Shown: one piece after another, positions 2,141 to 39,983 of the stretch
Layout: each line of letters opens with the position of its first letter
Position numbering within the stretch: position 1 is the stretch's first letter
NCBI GenBank assembly: GCA_947475825.1
Contig: CANJMS010000001.1
Location: 517-64,516, forward strand
Length of the DNA: 64,000 nucleotides
Direction: 5' to 3'
Origin: Nitrosomonadales bacterium
GTDB lineage: Bacteria > Pseudomonadota > Gammaproteobacteria > Burkholderiales > Gallionellaceae
The notes under the pieces: model-generated
Databases searched by the model: none
What the model was told of the DNA's origin: nothing
Seen by the model: only the letters and a program-made list of their open reading frames with translations
Position numbers and translations under genes: made by a program

Positions 2141-2632
2141 TTACAGCGCAGTTTGATAGCGAGCAAGTGTTGCATCTGCAGCCAATACTTCGCGCAAAGC
2201 GACGATAACTTGTTCAGTTGAGACGTTGTCACCGGTAAAAATACGTGCCATATTGTCTTTAGCCAAACGGTTGAAGGCGAGCTGGTCTTGAGCGGTCATA
2301 CCCATTAGATGGGATAGTGCAGCCAAAGTCTCACCACTGCCGACTGACATGTCGCGCGCCAATTGACCCTTGTTGCTATCAATGAACATCGCGGACTTCA
2401 TGTTCGAGTTCACCATGCCATCTTGTGTGCAGCCCAGCGTGCCGCTGGAAATGCCAAAAGTTTGATTGCCCAAAATGCTATTCGTGGTAATCGCCAACAC
2501 CTGTGGAGCAATGCCGGCTTGACCCTTAAACGCCATGGAGCCCAGGCCGCAACCGCCGACGTTATCATTTGCTGCCAATGCTACTGCTGGAAATGCAGCC
2601 ATCAAAGTTAATACTGTTACGAGCTTTTTCAT
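2141..2632 (-). CDS. DUF3015 family periplasmic protein
   Basis: MKKLVTVLTLMAAFPAVALAANDNVGGCGLGSMAF... shows a signal peptide plus the conserved GCGLGS start of DUF3015. I chose the internal ATG at 2632 over the ORF-track start at 2671. Confidence 0.7.
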   Translation of the reverse strand: MKKLVTVLTLMAAFPAVALAANDNVGGCGLGSMAFKGQAGIAPQVLAITTNSILGNQTFGISSGTLGCTQDGMVNSNMKSAMFIDSNKGQLARDMSVGSGETLAALSHLMGMTAQDQLAFNRLAKDNMARIFTGDNVSTEQVIVALREVLAADATLARYQTAL

Positions 2633-2940
2633 ATTTATTCCCCTATAGATTAAATTGACCTGATGAAACAACTAGCCATTCGACTAGGTTGTTAAAAGAC
2701 AACAACCAAGTCGCTGGTTATAAAGATTGCAAAGTAAAAAGACAACTGAAATTACGCCCCCCGAAACGTCCAGTGAACGTCTGTGTTATACTTGTATATC
2801 TTACAAGCTGTCAAATATGGCAAGCTGTCAAACATGTATTTCTATTGTTGCTGGCACAGATGCATAAACAGCGATTTTATCTTTAGAATTTAGATGCGCT
2901 TTAATAAACCCAAATAATCCATTGGAAATTTCAACACACT

Positions 2941-3040
2941 TCCCCCTTTGTAAAAGGGGGAGAGCTTGCGAGGGGGTGGAGGGTGATTTTTATATTTGTG
3001 CGATGTTCAAATCCCCCCATCCCCCCTTTTTCAAGGGGGG
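2941..3040. repeat. Compound C-run/G-run hairpin element
   Basis: TCCCCCTTTGTAAAAGGGGGAG and CCCCCCTTTTTCAAGGGGGG hairpins sit with extra C6 and G5 runs. On the reverse strand it reads PLEKGGMGG / PPFTKGE, like widespread small palindromic repeats. Confidence 0.5.
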
Positions 3041-3158: not shown

Positions 3159-6100
3159 CTACGGAAGCGCACCTCTTTGTAACGCCAGCACCGGAAGTGC
3201 TCCTTCCTGAAACACTTGCACCGAGGCACTGGTGACGGGGACTGGTGCAGTTGCGCCAACTCCCGCATCAAAGGTTGAGATGGCCATGTTGATGGTGTTG
3301 CCTGCTAAGCCGCTAAAGTTACCTTGGATGTTGAGTTGGTCGATGGTGGCTACTTGATTTATAATTGGGCTGCAAGCCGAGCAAGTAGCCGTTACATCGT
3401 TGGGGAGAAAGGCTCCGATATGCGCACCAGCGCCATCAACAGATAGCGTGAGTGGTGTAGCGGTTAAAGTGTAGGCAACTCCTCCTACATTCCAATTGGC
3501 ATTCATCGATGCTGTTTGCGGTTGATTAAAATTCACATTCAAATTGCCACCACCAAAAGTGCCGACATTCCCCAGATGGTCGGTTGGTAACGTGCCGCCA
3601 GTGTGGTTAAAATTAAAAGTACCTGTTCTGGCAGCGATGACTTCCGGTAGCGTTAATGCTGCGGAGTAGGCGACATGAATGCCGGATGCAGGGGTAAAGG
3701 GTGTTGCTGGCAGGTTGGGATTGGCCAAGATGTTGCCAGTAATCTGGCCGCCACTCCAACGGCCATAACCATCTCCGGCGGGACCTACTGTGCCGTCAGA
3801 TACTACGTTGTTGGTCAGTGTGCTGACACTGTCTACGTTTAAGTGAGTGGCACTGTCCTGAAACAGGGTGTTATAGGCGATTAAGTTGCCTGCACTATCC
3901 AGTGTTTTGTCAGTGGGCAAGATAAAAAGCGGATTGTCGGTGTTGGCAAAAGTTGTTAGCCCAGTGCCACCCGCATACGCTACCACCGCGCCTGCTGGCG
4001 TGATACCGGCAGTGCTGCCGCAATTCGCGCAGCTATAAATTTGTGCGGAAGCGGTGCTGCCAGCGATGGATTGTGTGGCAATGGATAACGCGGCATAGTT
4101 GCCATTCGCTCCGGCAAACGCGCCAGTAACTTGGGTGCTAGCTGCCCCGCCATTAGGACAAGCCGCCCCACCAGAACATGTTCCGTCAATACTAGTCCCG
4201 TTGATAATGACAACGCCCCGTTGTGCATCGGGAGCTAGCGTGATATCCACACTGTTAATGTTGTGGGTTGTGCCATTGATAGTCCAATTCATCGGGCTCA
4301 TCACGCCATCGTTGGTTTGAAAATTCACAAACATCGAGCCAAAAGAGGATACACCGGCGATAAGGCCTAGGTCGTCAGTGGGTGTAGTGCCAGCCAGATG
4401 GGTGAAATTGAAAATGCCATGACGAGCTGCCACCACCGACGGCGTGGTCAGATCAAAACCATAAATGTAATGCACGCCCGTACCTGCGGTAAGGAAGCCG
4501 TCAATATTCAGTGCCCCATTGACCCATCGTCCCCAGTGCGCGTTAATGGCGGCAAGGCCGCCGACCATGTCGGTGACAGCAGTAAATGACAAAAGATTTG
4601 TTTCCACGCCACTTGCAAGGATGCCACCACCCGCTGTGGGATCTGCGGTAAATGACAGTAGTTTTTCTGTCGCCCCCAATCCTGAAACGATAGTGGTCGC
4701 CAAACCACCCGCTACACCAAAATTTGAAGCGTTGATGACTGGGCGGAATGTTTGAGTGGCTGTGGGCTCGCGCAAAAAGCCTTCTACGCCGATGATTTGG
4801 TCAGCGGCGCCACCATCCAAGGAATAATGCAAACCTATGCCTTGCGCGAATGCCCCGGTGAATATGCCACTTGAATTGAAGACGTAGCTTGTTGCGCATG
4901 TGATAGTGCCAGAGGTACAAGTTGCTGTGCCAAAGTCGCTAAACGCACCAGCAGTAATCGCAACCGGGGTGATTGTATTGTAGGTAAAACTGCGGTTACT
5001 CATACCCACAGTCAAGTTGTTGAGCGAGACCAGTTGCTTGAGGAAATCTACGCTGATGTCACCGCCCGTTATTTCTGTTATTTTCCCCGTTTGCCCGGCG
5101 CGATCTACCGCAATGCCGCCGATTGGCTTGTAAATACCGACGAGGTTGTTCGGCAGAACAGGGGCGGCATCACCATATAGATAGACGAAGGAATCTAATG
5201 GATTAGTGAAAGTGCCGTTAATACTGGTTGATTGATCCGTGATGCCATTGCCTATCCAAGCACCCCAAGCAAGATTACCTGCTATAGCATGGCGACCCGT
5301 GCCGAAATTGCCGGCGAGGCCTATGTCCAGGATGCGTTGTTGCGCGACACCTTCCTGCTCCACCCTGACTAGCTCGCCGGTTGGTTTGAGGGGCAGTTCA
5401 TCGTTCTTTGAAATCAGTCCGGTTGAAAATGAGCCGCCAGTTAAGAGTCCCGCTATATGCCCCACCTTACCTGTTACCTCGACGGAGCCGCGTTGCAGTG
5501 GCGGCGGGGGTAAGTTACGACAATCGCCTGTGGTACAGTTGGGGTCATTTACTGTCACTTTGGACTCAAAAGTTCTGGAAATCATGTTTGGGCGGGGATC
5601 ATGGTCTGAGCCGCCCTTAGCGTTATCTCGCCCCTGGTCTTCGCCAGCCTCGCGGCCAGCTTTTTCATTCCGTCCTTCATCGTCTTTGCCGGACTTTCCA
5701 TTTGCAACCTGTCCACGTCCTTTTAAATTATCAGCGACGAAAGAGGGTGGCACCAGTAACATTTCAGGAGAAGATTTTTCATCTTTCACATAAAAGTGCT
5801 CGTCTCTGCTGAACTCATTTTCGCCGGAGAGGTTGTTAATGACGATACGACTGTCTTTGTCGGATGCGCTCAACACGCTGCCATATACGCCATCTTTGGC
5901 ATTTGAGCCATCCGGGTTTTTACAATCGTCTTCGCATACACGCACCGCGTAGTGGGTGCCGCGTATGCCGATAGTGGCGGCAGCCGTTTTAACCGAGTAA
6001 CTTTTTTGATTGGATTTACCGATCAGGCCGGTAATGGTGCGAAAGCCGCCTTTGATGAGATTAAAAATGGCTGTTTGTGTGCCACCTTTTTCTTTGGCGT

Positions 6101-32001: not shown

Positions 32002-33177
32002 CTAACAACGTAATTGATTTATTTTACCTTTGACCAGGTTGATTGTGTAATCAATTTCTGCTTGCGTGGTCGTGCGCCCCAGACTGAAGCGAATCGTGCT
32101 GCGTGCCAGTGCATCACTCCTACCTAAGGCGCGTAAAACATAAGAAGGTTCCAAGCTGGCAGCAGTGCAGGCCGACCCGCTGGAAACAGCAATTTCAGTG
32201 AGCACATTGGTCAGTTGTTTACCCTCCACCCGCTCAAAACTGATGTTTAGATTGTGCGGTATGCGCTGCGTCATGTCGCCATTCAGGATAATATTTTTTA
32301 TGCCGGACAAACCCTGCCACAGGCGATCGCGCAACATTTTTATGCGTGCAAGCTCCGTATGCATTTCCGTTTGCGCCAGATGAAAGGCCGCACCCATGCC
32401 GACAATTTGATGCGTGGCCAATGTGCCAGAACGCATTCCACGTTCCTGTCCGCCGCCGTGCATCTGTGCCTCCAGCCGGACACGCGGTTTGCGCCGCACA
32501 TACAGCGCGCCGATGCCCTTGGGGCCATAGGTTTTATGCGCCGAAAAAGACATCAAGTCGACCGGCATTCGACTTAAATTTATCTCCACTTTACCTGTCG
32601 CTTGCGCTGCATCCACATGCAACAAAATGCCACGCGCGTGACAAATTTCACCGAGCGCGGCAATGTCCTGAATCACCCCAATTTCATTGTTGACCAACAT
32701 CACAGAAGCCAACAAGGTGTCAGGGCGCAGAGCAGCCTCAAATGCATTCAAGTCCAGCAGGCCATTGGTTTGAGGCGTTAAATAAGTAGCAGTAAAACCT
32801 TGCTGTTCCAATTCACCCACCACATCCAACACCGCTTTGTGCTCGGTTTTCACCGTCACAATATGTCGCCCTTTGTTTTGATATCCATCATGAAGAGAAA
32901 AGCGCGCCGCACCTTTTAACGCAAGATTATTTGACTCAGTCGCGCCCGAAGTCCACACGATTTCTCTGGGATCAGCATTCACCAGACTCGCCACTTGAGA
33001 TCGCGCATTCTCACACGCTTCCTCCGCCACCTTGCCATATAAATGCGGGCTGGACTGATTGCCAAATTTTTCGGTGAGATACGGAATCATCACCGCTGCC
33101 ACACGCGGATCGACAGGTGTGGTCGCGGCAAAGTCCAGATAAATCGGAAAGGGGTGATGTGAGACGGGGGAATTCAT
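32002..33177 (-). CDS. IscS/NifS-type cysteine desulfurase (orphan; no iscU/hscBA nearby)
   Basis: …[15 protein letters not shown]…[15 protein letters not shown]…[20 protein letters not shown]… motifs. Confidence 0.85.
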
Positions 33178-33304
33178 TTTATGCGACTGGAATACGATAG
33201 CCGGATTTTACACGCAGATTGAAGCGCGCAGAGTGATTCACCCGACATGAATGCCCAGCAACATATCCATGCCTTGTCATACTAATGACCGAGATTATTT
33301 ACGC

Positions 33305-33332
33305 TTGACAACCTCCCCCCCCCCCCTATGCT
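33305..33332 (+). promoter_or_regulatory. Promoter-like site P1: TTGACA - 16 nt spacer containing C11 - TATGCT
   Basis: The hexamers and spacing are read directly. C-run at 33316-33326. Confidence 0.4.
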
Positions 33333-33416
33333 ACGGTGCAGTCCGCTGGCCATAGCTTTCCTTTAAAGTCATCCCAATACACGCTGCCCGCCATACCGCG
33401 CGTTAATTTTTTGTAT

Positions 33417-33443
33417 TTGGCAAACTCGGGGGGGGGGTAAAGT
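33417..33443 (+). promoter_or_regulatory. Promoter-like site P2: TTGGCA - 15 nt spacer containing G10 - TAAAGT
   Basis: The hexamers and spacing are read directly. G-run at 33428-33437. Confidence 0.35.
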
Positions 33444-33567
33444 TCGCGCGATTATTTGCGGCACGGAAGTACCGAAACGTAAACCTGATATTTATCGCTT
33501 GGTATCATCAGGCACCAGGCACAAATTGAACACAACGCAACAGCATACCCCGAGGAGGCTGGCCAGC

Positions 33568-35085
33568 ATGAACCGCATCGAATTCACCCGCGTATTGACC
33601 CGTAGCGTAACGACATTATTTATTGGTGCAGTATTGGCATCGTGTGGCGGGGGTGCCGACGTTGCACAAACCTCCGCCCCTAATACCTTGAGCGGCGTGG
33701 CGGCAGTAGGCTACCCGATTGTCGGCGGCACGGTCAGCGTGGTGTGCGCGGCGGGAGTTGTGCCAACCATTAACAACACAAGCGCCACGGGCGCATGGCA
33801 AGTATCCGCCGTCGGACTCACCCTGCCCTGTGCGGTTCGGGTATCCGGTGGGACAATCAACGGCGTAACCAGCACCGCGATGTACCATTCCCTCGCTAAC
33901 AGTATTGGCACCGTGAACATCACCCCGCTCACCGACCTGATCGTGGCCAATTTCGCACAAAGATCTGATCTTGATGTTTGGTTTGCCGGATTAAACCCTG
34001 CCGTAGTTGTTCAAGCTCAAATCACCCCAGCCTCGGTTGACGCGGCACTCGCCAATCTGCGCACAGCCCTTACCGAACTCACTCCGCTCGGCACGATCAA
34101 CCCCATCACCACGGCATTCACACCCACCGCTGGCAACACCACCGATGACATGTTGGTTGCCCTGAAAGTAGCTATGACTACCACGGGTGTCACGCACGCG
34201 GCATTGCTGAGCAATGCGTCACTCCCAATCTTCACCCCGCCTACAGGCTTCGGCCAAGCATTGACGACTGCCTTCGCAGGCACGGTGAGCGGCGGTGTGA
34301 AGCCCCCCGTCACTGGCCTCATCGCTACCGCCGGTGACGGGCAGGTGACTATCAGTTGGAATCCGGTTGCGGGAGCCACCTCCTACAAGCTTTACATGAA
34401 TACTTTGCCGGGCATATCCCTTACTGATCCTGCCAACATGCACCACCCGAGCGTAACCAGCCCGTTCCACCACCCCGACCTGACCAATGGCACAACCTAT
34501 TATTTTGTGGTGACGGCGGTTAATAAAAATGGTGAGAGCATCGAATCAAACGAGGTTTCGACTACCCCGCAAGCACCCTTCAGCAGTATTGCTGATGGTG
34601 CGAACCCGAATGACTGCGTACTGAACAACGTCACCGGCCTGATGTGGGAAGTCAAAACCACTGATCCAGTAGCTGGCGGCTTACGCGATTGGAACAAAAT
34701 TTACACCAACTACGACAGCACCTTATCAGCGCAAAAATTTGATGGTGTTTCGTCGGTCGCGCCCACCCAAGCCGAAATTGATGCGCCGACCAACAGTGTG
34801 GGCTTCAAGAACAGCGTCAATGCACAGGGGCTGTGCGGCTTCAACGACTGGCGTTTGCCGACTATTGGCGAACTGCAAAGCATCGTGAAGCCCGGCGTGG
34901 CTTTTCCCGGCCCCACTATTGACACCACCTGGTTCCCCAATACGAAGAATCAAGGGTTTTGGTCTGCCTCCCCCAACGTTGGCTACACCCTCGGCGCCTG
35001 GGGCGTCAATTTCAACGATGGCAACGTCAACCTCTATCTCCGCTACGGCAGTCGCTATGTGCGGTTAGTGCGTGCCGGTCAGTGA
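33568..35085 (+). CDS. Lipoprotein with FN3-like domain and C-terminal DUF1566 (Lcl C-terminal) domain
   Basis: The ATG at 33568 is preceded by GAGGAGG. Lipobox LASC-GG. FN3-like segment (GDGQVTISWNPVAGATSYKLY...YYFVVTAVNKNGES). DUF1566-like tail (TGLMWEVKT...WRLPTIGELQSIV...FWSASP...VRLVRAGQ). Confidence 0.75.
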   Translation: MNRIEFTRVLTRSVTTLFIGAVLASCGGGADVAQTSAPNTLSGVAAVGYPIVGGTVSVVCAAGVVPTINNTSATGAWQVSAVGLTLPCAVRVSGGTINGVTSTAMYHSLANSIGTVNITPLTDLIVANFAQRSDLDVWFAGLNPAVVVQAQITPASVDAALANLRTALTELTPLGTINPITTAFTPTAGNTTDDMLVALKVAMTTTGVTHAALLSNASLPIFTPPTGFGQALTTAFAGTVSGGVKPPVTGLIATAGDGQVTISWNPVAGATSYKLYMNTLPGISLTDPANMHHPSVTSPFHHPDLTNGTTYYFVVTAVNKNGESIESNEVSTTPQAPFSSIADGANPNDCVLNNVTGLMWEVKTTDPVAGGLRDWNKIYTNYDSTLSAQKFDGVSSVAPTQAEIDAPTNSVGFKNSVNAQGLCGFNDWRLPTIGELQSIVKPGVAFPGPTIDTTWFPNTKNQGFWSASPNVGYTLGAWGVNFNDGNVNLYLRYGSRYVRLVRAGQ

Positions 35086-35390
35086 TTGGGTTTTGGGTAT
35101 TGTTTTTTGCTGGGGGAATGGCGGAATAAGTTTGTAGCGGAGTTGCGTCATCCCCACCGTCACCGTGCCGCATGATCAGCGATAGAAAATTAAGTAAAAT
35201 GCAAATAAAAAGCCGCAATCACCTGAGGTTTTTTTGCTGGTGATGCGTGCAATTTGACTCGTCAGCATTTCAATCCTTGAATATTTTAATCGGCATACCA
35301 CACTGTCAACAGCCACTTGCAGAACGTTAGCTACTAGAGGATAATTCGCGGCTCTTTAAACCTGTTCCCGTAGAAACGAAGGCAAACCAA

Positions 35391-35612
35391 ATGAAAGCAG
35401 ACATTCATCCAACATATGGCGAAATCGAAGTCGGTTGTAGCTGTGGCAATAAATTTAAAACCAAATCTACGGTAGTGAAACCACTGCATGTGGAAGTTTG
35501 CTCAGAATGTCATCCTTTTTATACAGGGACGCAAAAGATTGTAGACACGGCTGGGCGTATTGAGAAATTTAACCAGAAATACAGTCGGCCAAGCAGCAAG
35601 ACAGCAGCCTAA
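35391..35612 (+). CDS. rpmE: 50S ribosomal protein L31
   Basis: [22 protein letters not shown]...[10 protein letters not shown]. Confidence 0.95.
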
Positions 35613-35726: not shown

Positions 35727-36844
35727 TTAGTAGTGTCTGGTTAAAAATCTAATAACATCAATCGATTATCGGATGGCGATGGAATCATTCTGTTGGTATA
35801 TGGCTGCAAGGCGCATGAAATCTCGGTTTTCTCGAAAACCGACACCGATAATATCTGTCGCAAAGTGTAAAGCGAGGCTTGGAGATGCAACTCTTTTTTG
35901 ACTATAGCGATCAGCACATAGGTGGACACCGCTACCCAAATTTGCGTCTTCCCGGTGCCGGGATAAAAGTTTCTCATAACCGCATTCTCGCGGATGCCCA
36001 AAAAACGCTTGATACGCAGGTGTTGCTTGATCCACTTGCCAACGCTGTTTGTAAAGTGCGGCAATGGGCAACGGCGGCAAGCTCGTATTGTTGGTCAGAA
36101 ACACCAGCGTCTTGCCGGACTCGGGATATTTGAAGCGGATACGCCGCAACTGTTCGGGGTAGTCGCGGGCCACGTAAAATCCGTTCAATGAGATGCGCTG
36201 ATCGCAAATCATCCCGGTTGCCCTGTCGGTCTTAGTCGAATACACGCGGTGAGCATTCATGCCACGCTTGGCGCGGGTCACAAAGAAGGCTCCGGCCTGA
36301 TGCAACGTGTGTATCTTCACGGCGGCTTTGGTACTGCGAAACGGCGTCCACCTCCGCCCAGATGTAACAAAGTCAGGCAATCCACTGTCCAACAAGCTGG
36401 ACGTGGAATTGACACTGCCAGTTGCGCCCTTAGCTGGCATCGGCCAGGGTCGAGCGACGCACGGTGGTGCGCAGTCCCATGAGGTAGAGCTTGCCCGGAT
36501 TGGCCGAAAGGCACGCTTCGATATCGCGCAAACTCTCTCGCCAAGTCAGTAGCGCGAAGGCCATGACGCGAAATTGTTCGGCGCAGCTGAGCACTCTCGC
36601 TCCCTTGTCGCCCCCATAACGCGCCACAATGCGGGTAAAGCTCGTCCACGGCATAAACTCCATTAGCTTGTGCACACAGGGTTTTGCCAATATACATGGT
36701 CGCCTCCAGCGTGTTGAAAACTCTGGGAACTACCAAAAAATTGAAATTCGTGTTTCAAGTCGGCACCAAATAAAATCGCTTGAAAACCCCCTCCAGTATT
36801 GGCTTTATCGAAATCTGGCAGGCATTTAACCGGACGCTACTGAC
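35727..36844 (-). mobile_element. Degenerate IS4-family insertion sequence (internally deleted, frameshifted)
   Basis: Imperfect terminal inverted repeats TTAGTAGTGTCTGGTTAAA (35727-) and TTTAACCGGACGCTACTGA (-36844). The interior encodes transposase pieces in three frames. Confidence 0.8.
35741..36700 (-). pseudogene. IS4-family (DUF4372 plus DDE) transposase pseudogene
   Basis: The pieces are MYIGKTLCAQ / LMEFMPWTSFTRIVARYGGDKGARVLSCAEQFRVMAFALLTWRESLRDIEACL... / ...AFFVTRAKRGMNAHRVY...LYKQRWQV / ...KQHLRIKRFLG..ENAV...IWVAVSTYVLIAIVKKEL. There are at least 3 frameshifts, and a central segment appears to be missing. Confidence 0.8.
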
Positions 36845-36885: not shown

Positions 36886-36914
36886 ATGTGAATTATAATG
36901 GATTCCGTTCACAT
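36886..36914. promoter_or_regulatory. Possible TetR operator: 7-bp inverted repeat ATGTGAA-N15-TTCACAT enclosing a TATAAT
   Basis: The palindrome is read directly and lies 20 nt upstream of the TetR gene start. Confidence 0.3.
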
Positions 36915-36933
36915 ATTTACCCATTGCCTACCG

Positions 36934-37536
36934 ATGAAAACTGATCACTCACCCGCACCTCTGCCACCCAAACAAAAAATTGTCGCTGCCGCCGAGAATC
37001 TCTTTATGGCACAAGGTTTTCGTTCGACCACTATTGCTGAAATTGCTCATGCTGCGGAAATGTCACCTGCCAATTTATATCGCCATTACGAAAACAAGGA
37101 GGATATTGCTGCAGCCTGCGTTGAGCATTGCTTAGATAAAAAAAACAAAATACTTCGTGGCGTACTGCAGTCCAAACATGCCAACACCGCCATATTACTG
37201 GAGGCGTTTGTAATCGCACTGCTGCGCTATACCCATAACGAAGCCATGTGCAACTCAAAGCTTAACGAAATGTGCGAAACGGTAATCGCCCTGAGACCAG
37301 AAGCAATACATATCATAATGTCAAATCTGCAAGCGATGTTCGCGGAGATTCTGGCACGAGGCAACGCTAGTAAAGAGTTTGAGGTAAAGAATATTATGCT
37401 CACATCTGAAACGCTACTTGAGACGCTCAGCACGTTTTCCAACCCGCTGCTGATGCACTTGCATCCGCTGCCAGAATTTGAGCGACGCGCGCGTGAGGCG
37501 GTATCACTACTCGTACGCGGGTTGTCTCGGCAATAA
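36934..37536 (+). CDS. TetR/AcrR family transcriptional regulator
   Basis: The HTH region KIVAAAENLFMAQGFRSTTIAEIAHAAEMSPANLYRHYENKEDI follows the internal ATG at 36934. Confidence 0.8.
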   Translation: MKTDHSPAPLPPKQKIVAAAENLFMAQGFRSTTIAEIAHAAEMSPANLYRHYENKEDIAAACVEHCLDKKNKILRGVLQSKHANTAILLEAFVIALLRYTHNEAMCNSKLNEMCETVIALRPEAIHIIMSNLQAMFAEILARGNASKEFEVKNIMLTSETLLETLSTFSNPLLMHLHPLPEFERRAREAVSLLVRGLSRQ

Positions 37537-37625
37537 ATTTGACTTGTCACGATGTAAATATAATGATAGCTTATTTACATCTTTCATCTAATCCAACAAC
37601 CCCCACAACCATTCTAAAAGTCACC

Positions 37626-39983
37626 ATGAAAAAATATTTAGAACAAGTCATTCAGTATCGCTGGCTGGTAATCGCTCTGACATTATTGCTCACAGGGTTG
37701 GCGATTCATCAGGCACGCACCTTACGCATTATCATCGACCCCAACACCATGCTGCCGCAAAACCACCCGTATGTGGACACGTCAAATCGCGTAGAAAAAC
37801 TATTCGGTAGCAAGGACATTGCCATTATCGGCATTACACCCAAGACAGGCGATGTGTTTCAGCCGGAAGTGTTACGCAAGGTGCAGAAAGTCACCACGGC
37901 TTTGATGCAATCACCAGGGGTGATTAAAGAAAATTTACTGAGCCTGACCGCACGTCGCGCCAAAAATATTATTGGCACGGCAGAGGGTATGGAAGTGCGC
38001 CCTCTGATTACTACCATTCCTGAAACTCCGCAACAGATGGCCGCGCTACGGCAGGCAATCAAGAATAATCCGGCTTATATCAATTCCATTATTTCGCAAG
38101 ACGAGCGCACGGCGGTGATCGTGGTGCCATTCAAAAATGGCAAAGGCGGATTTCGCGGCATGATGGAGACCGCCAACAAAGCACTGGACAGTGTGCGCGA
38201 CGATACGGTGGATATTGCTATCGGTGGCCTGCCCAGTTTTCTATCGCGCATCGAGATTTATTCCGAGCGCATGGGCATTTTATTGCCGCTGGCGATTTTA
38301 CTGGTGGGGTTGATTTTATTCGAGGCATTCCGCTCTTTTCAAGGCATGATCTTGCCATTGATTACCGCGATTCTTGCCGTGGCATGGGGTGTCGGCACAA
38401 TGGGTGCGGTGGGCGTGCCGATGGATGTGTTTAATGCCACCACGCCGATATTAATTTTGGCCGTGGCAGCAGGTCATGCTGTGCAATTGTTAAAGCGTTA
38501 TTACGAAGAGTATTACCGCATCATTGATACCTCCGGCACTACCATAACACTGCGCGAGGCAAACCGACTGGCGGTGATCGAATCGCTGTCTAAAGCTGGC
38601 CCCGTCATGATGGTGGCAGGCATGGTGGCGGCACTGGTATTCTTTTCGCTGATGGTGTTTGAAATTACTACGGTACGCACCTTTGGAATTTTCACTGGTA
38701 TGGGCATACTCGCTGCGCTGACTTTGGAAATGACGTTTATTCCGGCCATCCGCTCCATGCTCAAACCACCGAGTGAAAAGGATGGTCTGCTGGAAAAACG
38801 CGTGCGCATCTGGGACATTATCGTCAATAAAATCGCCAATCAAGTAACCAACCATCGCCAGCGCGTGTACGGTGTGGCGGCGGGACTCATCGTCATCGGA
38901 CTGTTTGGCATGAGCCTAGTAGTCACGAATAATTCCACTAAATCTTATTTTTCCAAAGATGCCTCATTTATGCAGGAAGATCGATTTTTAAATGCGCACA
39001 TCGGCGGCACCAACACGCTCTCACTGCTAATCGAAGGCAAGCATGACGATGCTATCAAAGACCCCAAAGTGTTGCAGGCAATGGATGAGATACAACAGTT
39101 TCTCGATCAACAGCAATATGTGGGTAAAACTTTGTCGATGGCGGACTTTATTAAACGCATGAACCAAGCCATGCACGGCGATGATCCGGCATTGTATAAA
39201 ATTCCAGAAGATGGCAATTTAATTTCACAATATCTGCTGCTGTACTCCATGTCGGGCGAGCCGGGCGACTTTGATACCTATGTCGATTACAACTATCGTA
39301 TGGCCAACATGACTGTTTTTTTGAAAGTCGACAGCAGTGCACACATCGAAGCGTTGGTGCCAAAAATTCGCGCCTTTGCGGCAGAGCGATTGGGTGACCG
39401 CGCCACGCTGCACATTGGCGGCAGTGTGCCGCAAGGCACGGCATTAAATGAAGTCATGGTGCATGGCAAAATTCTCAACATCGTACAAATGGCCGCCGTG
39501 GTATTTATTATTTCATCACTGGTGTTTCGTTCACTACTGGCTGGACTGCTGGTGCTGCTACCCTTGCTCATGGCAGTCATCGCTAACTTTGCCATGATGG
39601 GCTACAGCGGCATGTATTTGAATATTTCCAACTCGCTCAGCTCCGCCATGGCAATTGGTATTGGTGCGGACTATGCCATTTATTTAATATACCGTTTGCG
39701 CGAGGATATCCGTAAAGGTGAAAATGAAATGGAAGCGGTGCGACATGTGCTGGGCACCGCTGGCAAGGCTTGTTTGTTTGTGGCGATTGCGATCAGCATG
39801 GGTTATGGCGTATTGTTCTTCTCGGTTGGATTTAACATACACATCTGGCTGGCAACACTGATTGCGACTTCCATGTTGACCAGTGTGTTCGCCGCGCTGT
39901 TTTTAATTCCTTCTGTGATACTCACTTTCCGACCTGACTTTGTCTATCGTTCCAGTTCTGTAAATAAAGGAGCAACTTCATGA
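37626..39983 (+). CDS. MMPL/RND-superfamily exporter (HpnN-like)
   Basis: Two 6-TM bundles with large periplasmic loops. The start MKKYLEQVIQYRWLVIALTLL was chosen. Confidence 0.8.
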   Translation: MKKYLEQVIQYRWLVIALTLLLTGLAIHQARTLRIIIDPNTMLPQNHPYVDTSNRVEKLFGSKDIAIIGITPKTGDVFQPEVLRKVQKVTTALMQSPGVIKENLLSLTARRAKNIIGTAEGMEVRPLITTIPETPQQMAALRQAIKNNPAYINSIISQDERTAVIVVPFKNGKGGFRGMMETANKALDSVRDDTVDIAIGGLPSFLSRIEIYSERMGILLPLAILLVGLILFEAFRSFQGMILPLITAILAVAWGVGTMGAVGVPMDVFNATTPILILAVAAGHAVQLLKRYYEEYYRIIDTSGTTITLREANRLAVIESLSKAGPVMMVAGMVAALVFFSLMVFEITTVRTFGIFTGMGILAALTLEMTFIPAIRSMLKPPSEKDGLLEKRVRIWDIIVNKIANQVTNHRQRVYGVAAGLIVIGLFGMSLVVTNNSTKSYFSKDASFMQEDRFLNAHIGGTNTLSLLIEGKHDDAIKDPKVLQAMDEIQQFLDQQQYVGKTLSMADFIKRMNQAMHGDDPALYKIPEDGNLISQYLLLYSMSGEPGDFDTYVDYNYRMANMTVFLKVDSSAHIEALVPKIRAFAAERLGDRATLHIGGSVPQGTALNEVMVHGKILNIVQMAAVVFIISSLVFRSLLAGLLVLLPLLMAVIANFAMMGYSGMYLNISNSLSSAMAIGIGADYAIYLIYRLREDIRKGENEMEAVRHVLGTAGKACLFVAIAISMGYGVLFFSVGFNIHIWLATLIATSMLTSVFAALFLIPSVILTFRPDFVYRSSSVNKGATS

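Follow-up and report, generated by a model that had tools for sequence, protein, structure and literature searches.

The question raised by this locus is whether two long G/C homopolymers upstream of a lipoprotein gene set the expression of that gene. The locus lies in a 64-kb window (the whole stretch of DNA analysed, 64,000 nucleotides), where each homopolymer is enclosed by a -35-like and a -10-like hexamer. To our knowledge, contingency loci driven by slippage have been described almost wholly from host-associated pathogens. Literature searches gave no link of phase variation with Nitrotoga or with DUF1566, and one paper mentions both Gallionellaceae and phase variation. On balance, we lean towards reading the two sites, P1 and P2, as slipped-strand contingency promoters of the kind represented by porA, tp0126 and vlp.

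The affinity of the host can be read from its proteins. The Mfd-like and PQQ-dehydrogenase proteins encoded in the window cluster at 90% identity with proteins that carry the name 'MAG: Candidatus Nitrotoga sp.', and the iscS-like aminotransferase shares at most 74% identity with any GTDB representative, the best matches being from Gallionellaceae and Sideroxydans. The window sequence occurs in lake-water and freshwater metagenomes, and relatives of it are found in groundwater and biofilter metagenomes.

Promoter-like sites in the intergenic region

The features of the region, and the P2-like elements of related loci, are collected in Table 1. Direct reading of the sequence placed the hexamers of P1 and P2 exactly where the preliminary description had put them and confirmed its P2 spacer of AACTC+G10. 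The P1 spacer has the 16-nt length that had been given, and its composition is that of Table 1 and not AACCT+C11. In a promoter consensus scan, P1 matches 10 of 12 consensus positions; P2 is absent from the output because its spacer falls outside the 16-18 range of the scan.

Table 1. Features of the locus (window positions) and P2-like cassettes of related loci
Feature	Position	Strand	Sequence	Remarks
Class-V aminotransferase (IscS/NifS-like) gene	32002-33177	-		
Intergenic region	33178-33567			between the aminotransferase gene (-) and the lipoprotein gene (+)
P1 -35-like hexamer	33305-33310	+	TTGACA	sequence reading, consensus scan
P1 poly-C tract	33315-33326		C12	ACCT + C12 = 16-nt spacer; length-polymorphic
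P1 -10-like hexamer	33327-33332	+	TATGCT	sequence reading, consensus scan
AT-rich stretch	33403-33416	+	TTAATTTTTTGTAT	directly 5' of the P2 -35, in UP-element position
P2 -35-like hexamer	33417-33422	+	TTGGCA	TTGACA in the relatives listed below; GTGACA in L012
P2 poly-G tract	33428-33437		G10	AACTC + G10 = 15-nt spacer
P2 -10-like hexamer	33438-33443	+	TAAAGT	TAGAGT in relatives; followed by G+C-rich TCGCGCG
P3, weak promoter-like	33499-33527	+	TTGGTA-17 nt-CAAATT	consensus match only
Shine-Dalgarno	33552-33558	+	GAGGAGG	9 nt before ATG; conserved in relatives
Lipoprotein gene	33568-35085	+		505 aa; ATG at 33568
Cassette of L013			TTGACA, AACTC G10, TAGAGT	15-nt spacer; product 76% identical; different neighbours
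Cassette of L141-143			TTGACA, AACGCGGAA G9, TAGAGT	18-nt spacer; product 72% identical
Cassette of L001			TTGACA, AAATCGA G7AG3, TAGAGT	18-nt spacer; product 66% identical
Cassette of L150			TTGACA, AACT G8, TAGAGT	12-nt spacer; Ca. Nitrotoga MAG ASF_26

The earlier argument that such a placement of the tracts is unlikely to be accidental holds up. Taking as comparable any pair with a -35 of at least 5/6, a spacer of 14-18 and a -10 of at least 4/6 with A2 and T6, only 0.65% of the 10-nt segments of the window lie wholly within the spacer of such a pair, a figure that applies to each tract, and P1 and P2 are the only such pairs on the + strand of 33000-33700. C12 and G10 are also the only G/C homopolymers of 8 nt or more in the window, the next longest being G7, and no G/C run of 9 nt or more was found in 541 kb of related betaproteobacteria, drawn from 80 loci around the iscS-like orthologue.

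Further elements accompany the two sites. The AT-rich stretch at 33403-33416 presumably acts as an UP element; it is kept in L012 and L141, and its GTAT part is present in every cassette described below. P3 could possibly be a promoter independent of both tracts, as judged from its match to consensus, and the L012 orthologue carries TTGACA-17-CAAATT at the same position. The -35 flanks of P1 and P2 resemble each other (TTGACAACCTC vs TTGGCAAACTC, 9/11), a likeness that we set aside as evidence of duplication because it is too short. No Rfam leader matched within 33100-33700 at E values up to 1.

The preliminary description had also assigned the region to the divergent iscS-like gene, a proposal that drew no support from a search of the minus strand: no sigma-70-like site was present in 33178-33480, even with relaxed criteria. 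A tract-overlapping promoter shared with the iscS-like gene was thus rejected, as no minus-strand site lies over the tracts.

The lipoprotein and its family

The domains that had been suggested for the product were borne out, with a lipobox L-A-S-C (Cys26) in the signal peptide and Pfam matches to fn3 (residues 247-332, E 4e-7) and Lcl_C/DUF1566 (residues 350-502, E 6e-26). In a structure model, residues ~40-240 form a beta-sandwich and a helical bundle (pLDDT ~90), and this part matches PgcA, a lipoprotein cytochrome c of Geobacter, in its non-heme domain, both by profile (E 5e-9) and by Foldseek (9i0d, E 8e-9; PDB 9i0d/9i0e). The Lcl_C part of the model has a pLDDT below 50 and was left uninterpreted. 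The PgcA-N-like domain forms the N-terminal part of hundreds of proteins from Nitrosomonadales and Gallionellaceae, where it is followed by varied C-terminal modules (NHL, IPT/TIG, FG-GAP, RCC1 and Lcl_C). The start MNRIEFTR is kept in relatives, and surface exposure of the lipoprotein is plausible from these features. Since DUF1566/Lcl_C proteins can be variable proteins of diversity-generating retroelements (DGR), the gene was considered as a DGR target and rejected as one; blastn (word size 7) and tblastn found no second copy of any stretch of 33178-35300 in the window that could be a template repeat.

A poly-G frameshift tract is used inside a member of this family. In L141-143, from three assemblies, an intragenic G10 (L141 2402-2411, L142 1857-1866, L143 1976-1985) stops the ORF at residue 384 and leaves the Lcl_C part in another frame, so that the gene falls into two ORFs, one of 384 aa and one, with Lcl_C, of 212 aa; with G8 or G11 the product would again be 576-577 aa long. 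Homologues code the same Gly-rich site with mixed codons. From its sequence, this G10 would mark either a classical translational contingency locus or a pseudogene to which such a locus gave rise.

Shorter tracts were seen in other relatives. L012 contains an in-frame intragenic C8 that codes a proline run (3715-3722). In L014, three very large genes with Lcl_C/Ig domains stand in tandem, with two near-identical intergenic regions of ~350 nt (2640-3010 and 5520-5890), which differ from each other in two short C tracts (C7 vs G+C6, and C6 vs C7).

Downstream of the lipoprotein gene, the window holds overlapping minus-strand ORFs at 35741-36736 that match DDE_Tnp_1 weakly, with DUF4372 as the call in L006; the region looks like a degraded IS-type transposase. 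It is flanked by rpmE (35391-35612) and a TetR/MMPL pair (36898-39983), and a haplotype-marking SNP, 35903 T/G, falls inside it.

A G-tract cassette shared by diverged genes

P2 belongs to a cassette that recurs upstream of related genes. It consists of the AT-rich stretch and GTAT-TTGACA-(AAC..)-Gn-TAGAGT/TAAAGT-GCGC, with the core GTATTTGACAAAC-Gn-TAGAGT, and it fronts lipoprotein genes whose products are just 66-76% identical to that of the window (L013, L141-143, L001). In a multiple alignment the cassette is the best conserved block of upstream regions that are otherwise unalignable, and the P2 -35 hexamer is the most conserved island of that alignment. In L150, the cassette (GTATTTGACAAACT-G8-TAGAGTGCGCGG, reverse strand, ~3306-3333) is located upstream of a large RTX/cadherin-like/Big_9 adhesin gene; by eye, the divergent ORF upstream of it has the look of a GspG-type pseudopilin.

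The G tract is evolutionarily labile between conserved hexamers. Groundwater metagenome contigs that match the module carry G9, G11, G13 and one G>A-interrupted tract, and the spacers across these contigs and the cassette copies are 12, 14, 15, 16 or 18 nt long. Comparison of the copies thus indicates that the hexamers are kept while the tract drifts between 6 and 13. Within the strain of the window, G10 is constant in every assembly. The length variation that the preliminary description had asked to be sought in other isolates is present for the G tract among relatives only, and for the C tract, as C10, C11 and C12, on near-identical backgrounds.

The cassette and signal peptide are common to at least four diverged genes, all on separate metagenome contigs; the groundwater runs each have several contigs that match the module, and in groundwater the depth is highest over the cassette and the codons of the signal peptide, in keeping with a module present in multiple copies. 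The 64-kb window itself holds one copy. A protein-pattern scan with the lipoprotein returned no relative from GTDB genomes and only L001 from metagenomes, and the first DNA pattern scans of genome contigs returned mostly unrelated phyla, with a true cassette in L150 only.

Two further observations were made in these comparisons. The stretch 33565-33602, which covers the RBS region and signal-peptide codons, is common to X9, X12, X14 and X15 (4 mismatches in 38 nt) while both flanks diverge, which suggests further family members or recombination at a conserved 5' module. In unrelated phyla, TTGACA followed by a 16-nt spacer ending in G7-G11 and by TAGAGT/TAAAGT was found 5' of signal-peptide-like products in L181 and L182 (Pseudanabaena), L180 (cyanobacterium), L125 (Microcystis), L183 (Bdellovibrionales) and L179 (Anaerovoracaceae), among them one Firmicute lipoprotein-like gene and two Pseudanabaena paralogues. 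Nine matches of this pattern stand against a rough estimate of ~3-4 expected, and a poly-G run placed directly against the -10 may be a switch design that recurs.

P1 in relatives

P1 is confined to the syntenic locus and absent from the other cassettes. Its -35 in syntenic relatives is TTGACA or CTGACA (L012 and the loose ends X12, X14 and X15). L012 has CTGACA-GTCCCCCGC-TATGCC, with a C5 and a spacer of 9 nt; X14 and X16 have C5TC4 and a 14-nt spacer; X15, which is 88% identical, has TTGACA-GCCT and then ~11 aligned C positions; and X12 reads TTGACAGCCCCCTGAC. From these relatives, a C-rich tract between the P1 hexamers is taken to be ancestral, with a widely ranging length, and the spacing across relatives extends from 9 to 16 nt. 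The tract is long in this strain and, apparently, in one more distant relative (X15), whereas the remaining relatives have a short or interrupted one.

L012 (region 2600-3010; product 72% identical) has in addition lost ~11 nt including the P2 -10, leaving a G6 and the -35 GTGACA. Its ORF of 571 aa is intact despite the lost P2 -10 and the 9-nt P1 spacing, and another promoter, for example P3, may therefore exist.

The relatives bear on whether the tracts regulate anything. The two tracts could be hypermutable microsatellites without a regulatory role, with the hexamers unused or read in another register and transcription starting from another promoter such as P3, and we regard this as unlikely, although several observations agree with it. 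The spacers of the window and L013 (15 nt) and of L150 (12 nt) fall outside the functional range, the P1 spacing varies among relatives, and L012 retains its ORF and the downstream TTGACA-17-CAAATT. However, interruptions would be expected to break up a neutral G run, whereas a G tract of at least 8 nt persists between conserved hexamers in copies with products of only 66-76% identity and also before an unrelated adhesin gene, and no other part of the upstream regions is as conserved as the cassette. The low chance of each tract falling inside a promoter-like spacer, and the complete absence of such runs from the related loci, also argue against tracts without a role.

Less probable still is that the cassette is the target of an alternative sigma factor, an activator or a repressor that reads TTGACAAAC...G-run, with the tract modulating the binding of this factor and not the sigma-70 spacing, as at opc or fim. 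Conservation does reach past the hexamers (GTAT precedes the -35, AAC follows it and GCGC follows the -10), the spacings cluster at 15 and 18 nt and not at 17, and the poly-C of opc, which overlaps the -35, is thought to act via a regulator (PMC7864442). Against this, the hexamers are near-perfect for sigma-70 (TTGACA; TAGAGT with T1, A2, A4 and T6), the AT-rich stretch sits in the UP-element position, and linkage to a regulator gene is absent.

Length alleles of the C tract

The C tract is hypermutable within the strain. Ten further contigs with an identical protein were fetched, with 99.89-100% identity to the window over 3-5.7 kb, and consensus contigs from ENA and Logan were examined, several of which may derive from the same samples. 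C12 is present in the window, L002, L004, L005, L009 and L010 and in Logan X1-4, X7, X10 and X13; C11 in L007, L008 and L011 and in the Logan runs X6, X8 and X11; and C10 in L003. The corresponding P1 spacers are 14 nt (C10), 15 nt (C11) and 16 nt (C12), and C13 would give 17. The same-strain assemblies show SNPs relative to the window at 0-3 positions, yet they carry three C-tract alleles, and the tract is the sole indel in the alignments of 3-5.7 kb.

The alleles follow the background. C11 co-occurs with SNP 32476T in two assemblies (L007 and L008), C10 lies on the haplotype 35903G + 31813C, and C12 is found on both 35903T and 35903G backgrounds. As the alleles co-segregate with SNP haplotypes, the lengths are heritable and not random read error. 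A 12-nt tract has thus changed at least twice on a genealogy with ~5 SNP sites per 5 kb, which indicates localised hypermutation. In addition, contigs end at the C tract in X5 and X9, and the L006 contig begins inside G10, which is suggestive only as a sign of heterogeneity within populations.

Illumina accuracy falls at long G/C homopolymers, and the length differences might in principle be sequencing or assembly artefacts, all the more as depths are low (3-12x), contigs alone were seen, and the breaks at tracts could be coverage loss. We consider this very improbable. C11 accompanies 32476T twice and C10 has a separate two-SNP haplotype, the same lengths recur over two assembly pipelines and several studies, and the nearby G10, an equivalent template, is constant throughout; the co-segregation with SNPs and the constancy of G10 together are the grounds on which the variation is taken as real. 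It is hardly credible that C12 and G10 are instead an inverted repeat that folds into a hairpin or cruciform, or that bounds an invertible promoter segment of 101 bp, for although the runs are complementary and pair in the minimum-energy DNA fold, that fold is no better than those of shuffles (z = -0.42), ~20 assemblies contain no inverted segment or strand-change joint, cassettes elsewhere have the G tract without a C tract, and L012 has C5 and G6 only. An invertible promoter switch of the fimS or Bacteroides type was likewise rejected, every contig having the same orientation.

Discussion

The arrangement of the locus suggests that the hexamers are used as promoters and that tract length alters expression. 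Under slipped-strand control, two sigma-70-type promoter-like sites would drive the lipoprotein gene, and RNA polymerase binding would be governed by spacer length with an optimum of 17 nt. Because spacer length sets polymerase binding, a change of tract length would shift transcription up, down or off, and the result would be phase or 'volume' variation, in which expression changes are heritable yet reversible. P2 would be the ancestral element, a copy of the cassette that a Ca. Nitrotoga-like family of genes for surface or secreted proteins has in common. Its predicted state at G10 is weak or off, while G12 would give a spacer of 17 nt. P1, which reaches a functional spacing (16 nt) only at C12, is predicted to be off at C10 and C11 and moderately active at C12, and the strain of the window may rely on P1 with P2 parked off.

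Some of the evidence counts against a switch. G10 is invariant within the strain, and the diverged copies have spacings that would be non-functional, namely 15 nt in both the window and L013 and 12 nt in L150; such spacings are expected if the hexamers do not serve as a promoter, or if the majority of copies are just switched off. A search for RNA runs containing the locus gave no match. Likewise, the sampled spacings (14-16 nt for P1 and 15 nt for P2) lie below the 17-nt optimum, so that populations would be mostly low or off, which fits a switch but equally a non-functional site. The combinatorial control by two tracts that was put forward in the preliminary description is speculative, since P1 spacing is unconserved among relatives and P1 occurs at the syntenic locus only.

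Promoter-spacer phase variation is recognised by a homopolymer of about 8 nt or more between the hexamers, which is found for both C12 and G10, and by lengths that differ between near-identical genomes, which is found for the C tract only. In Bordetella fim, a poly-C tract separates an activator site from the -10, whereas P1 implies no activator. The promoter poly-C tracts of opc and of Bordetella fim2/fim3, of ~10-15, grade transcription, and P1 is also built on poly-C. Clones of opc move between 11C, 12C and 14C (PMC6389960). Unlike the opc tract, which overlaps the -35 (PMC7864442), the P1 tract is positioned cleanly between the hexamers.

The closest parallels are Neisseria meningitidis porA and Treponema pallidum tp0126, in which a poly-G tract is located between the -35 and the -10 with an optimum of 17 nt (PMC7864442). 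There, as in P2 and, with poly-C, in P1, the homopolymer forms most of a sigma-70-type spacer; the promoters serve outer-membrane or surface proteins, and changes of one base shift the spacing around 17 nt (PMC7864442). The present locus differs in that its host is a free-living freshwater nitrite oxidiser and not a host-restricted pathogen, the lengths of 14-16 nt are all below the optimum, two sites stand in tandem, and the effect on expression is predicted from the sequence.

The cassette family, for its part, recalls the vlp lipoproteins of Mycoplasma hyorhinis, which have a promoter poly-A tract (PMC10502178). In that family the tract-bearing promoter and signal peptide are conserved, the exposed part differs, and each gene is switched by indels in its own tract (PMC10502178). 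Similarly, genes with different domain sets have in common the cassette and a signal peptide of the form MNRIEFTR...LASC. Unlike vlp, the tract is poly-G and not poly-A, the members are seen on contigs of different metagenomes with one copy in the window, and the cassette also fronts a non-lipoprotein RTX adhesin. G/C homopolymers of ~8-13 in Campylobacter jejuni are both intergenic and intragenic and are concentrated in surface-structure genes (PMC8355987); the combination of promoter tracts with the intragenic G10 frameshift of L141-143 is alike, in a different phylum and ecology.

More broadly, and as a tentative proposal that we hold possible rather than probable, Ca. Nitrotoga and its close relatives may possess a phasome, made up of a dispersed poly-G-spacer cassette in front of many genes for surface or secreted proteins, of intragenic switches and, at this locus, of a second promoter with poly-C. 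Among these would be genes for lipoproteins of the PgcA-N type, with C-terminal modules exchanged between them, and for an RTX/cadherin adhesin. If this is true, a simple-sequence contingency system would be on record for the first time in a free-living chemolithoautotroph, and it would presumably serve as a bet-hedge against phages or grazers and not against immunity.

The mechanism class is well known, and the interest of the locus lies in its free-living chemolithoautotrophic host, its tandem arrangement and its natural alleles. With C10-C12 and G6-G13 already present in public samples, the locus is directly testable. If the tracts control expression, the surface proteins of an uncultured nitrite oxidiser of environmental importance vary stochastically, which would have a bearing on phage-host dynamics in lakes, groundwater and biofilters, as well as on the breaks and mis-calls at such loci in metagenome-assembled genomes.
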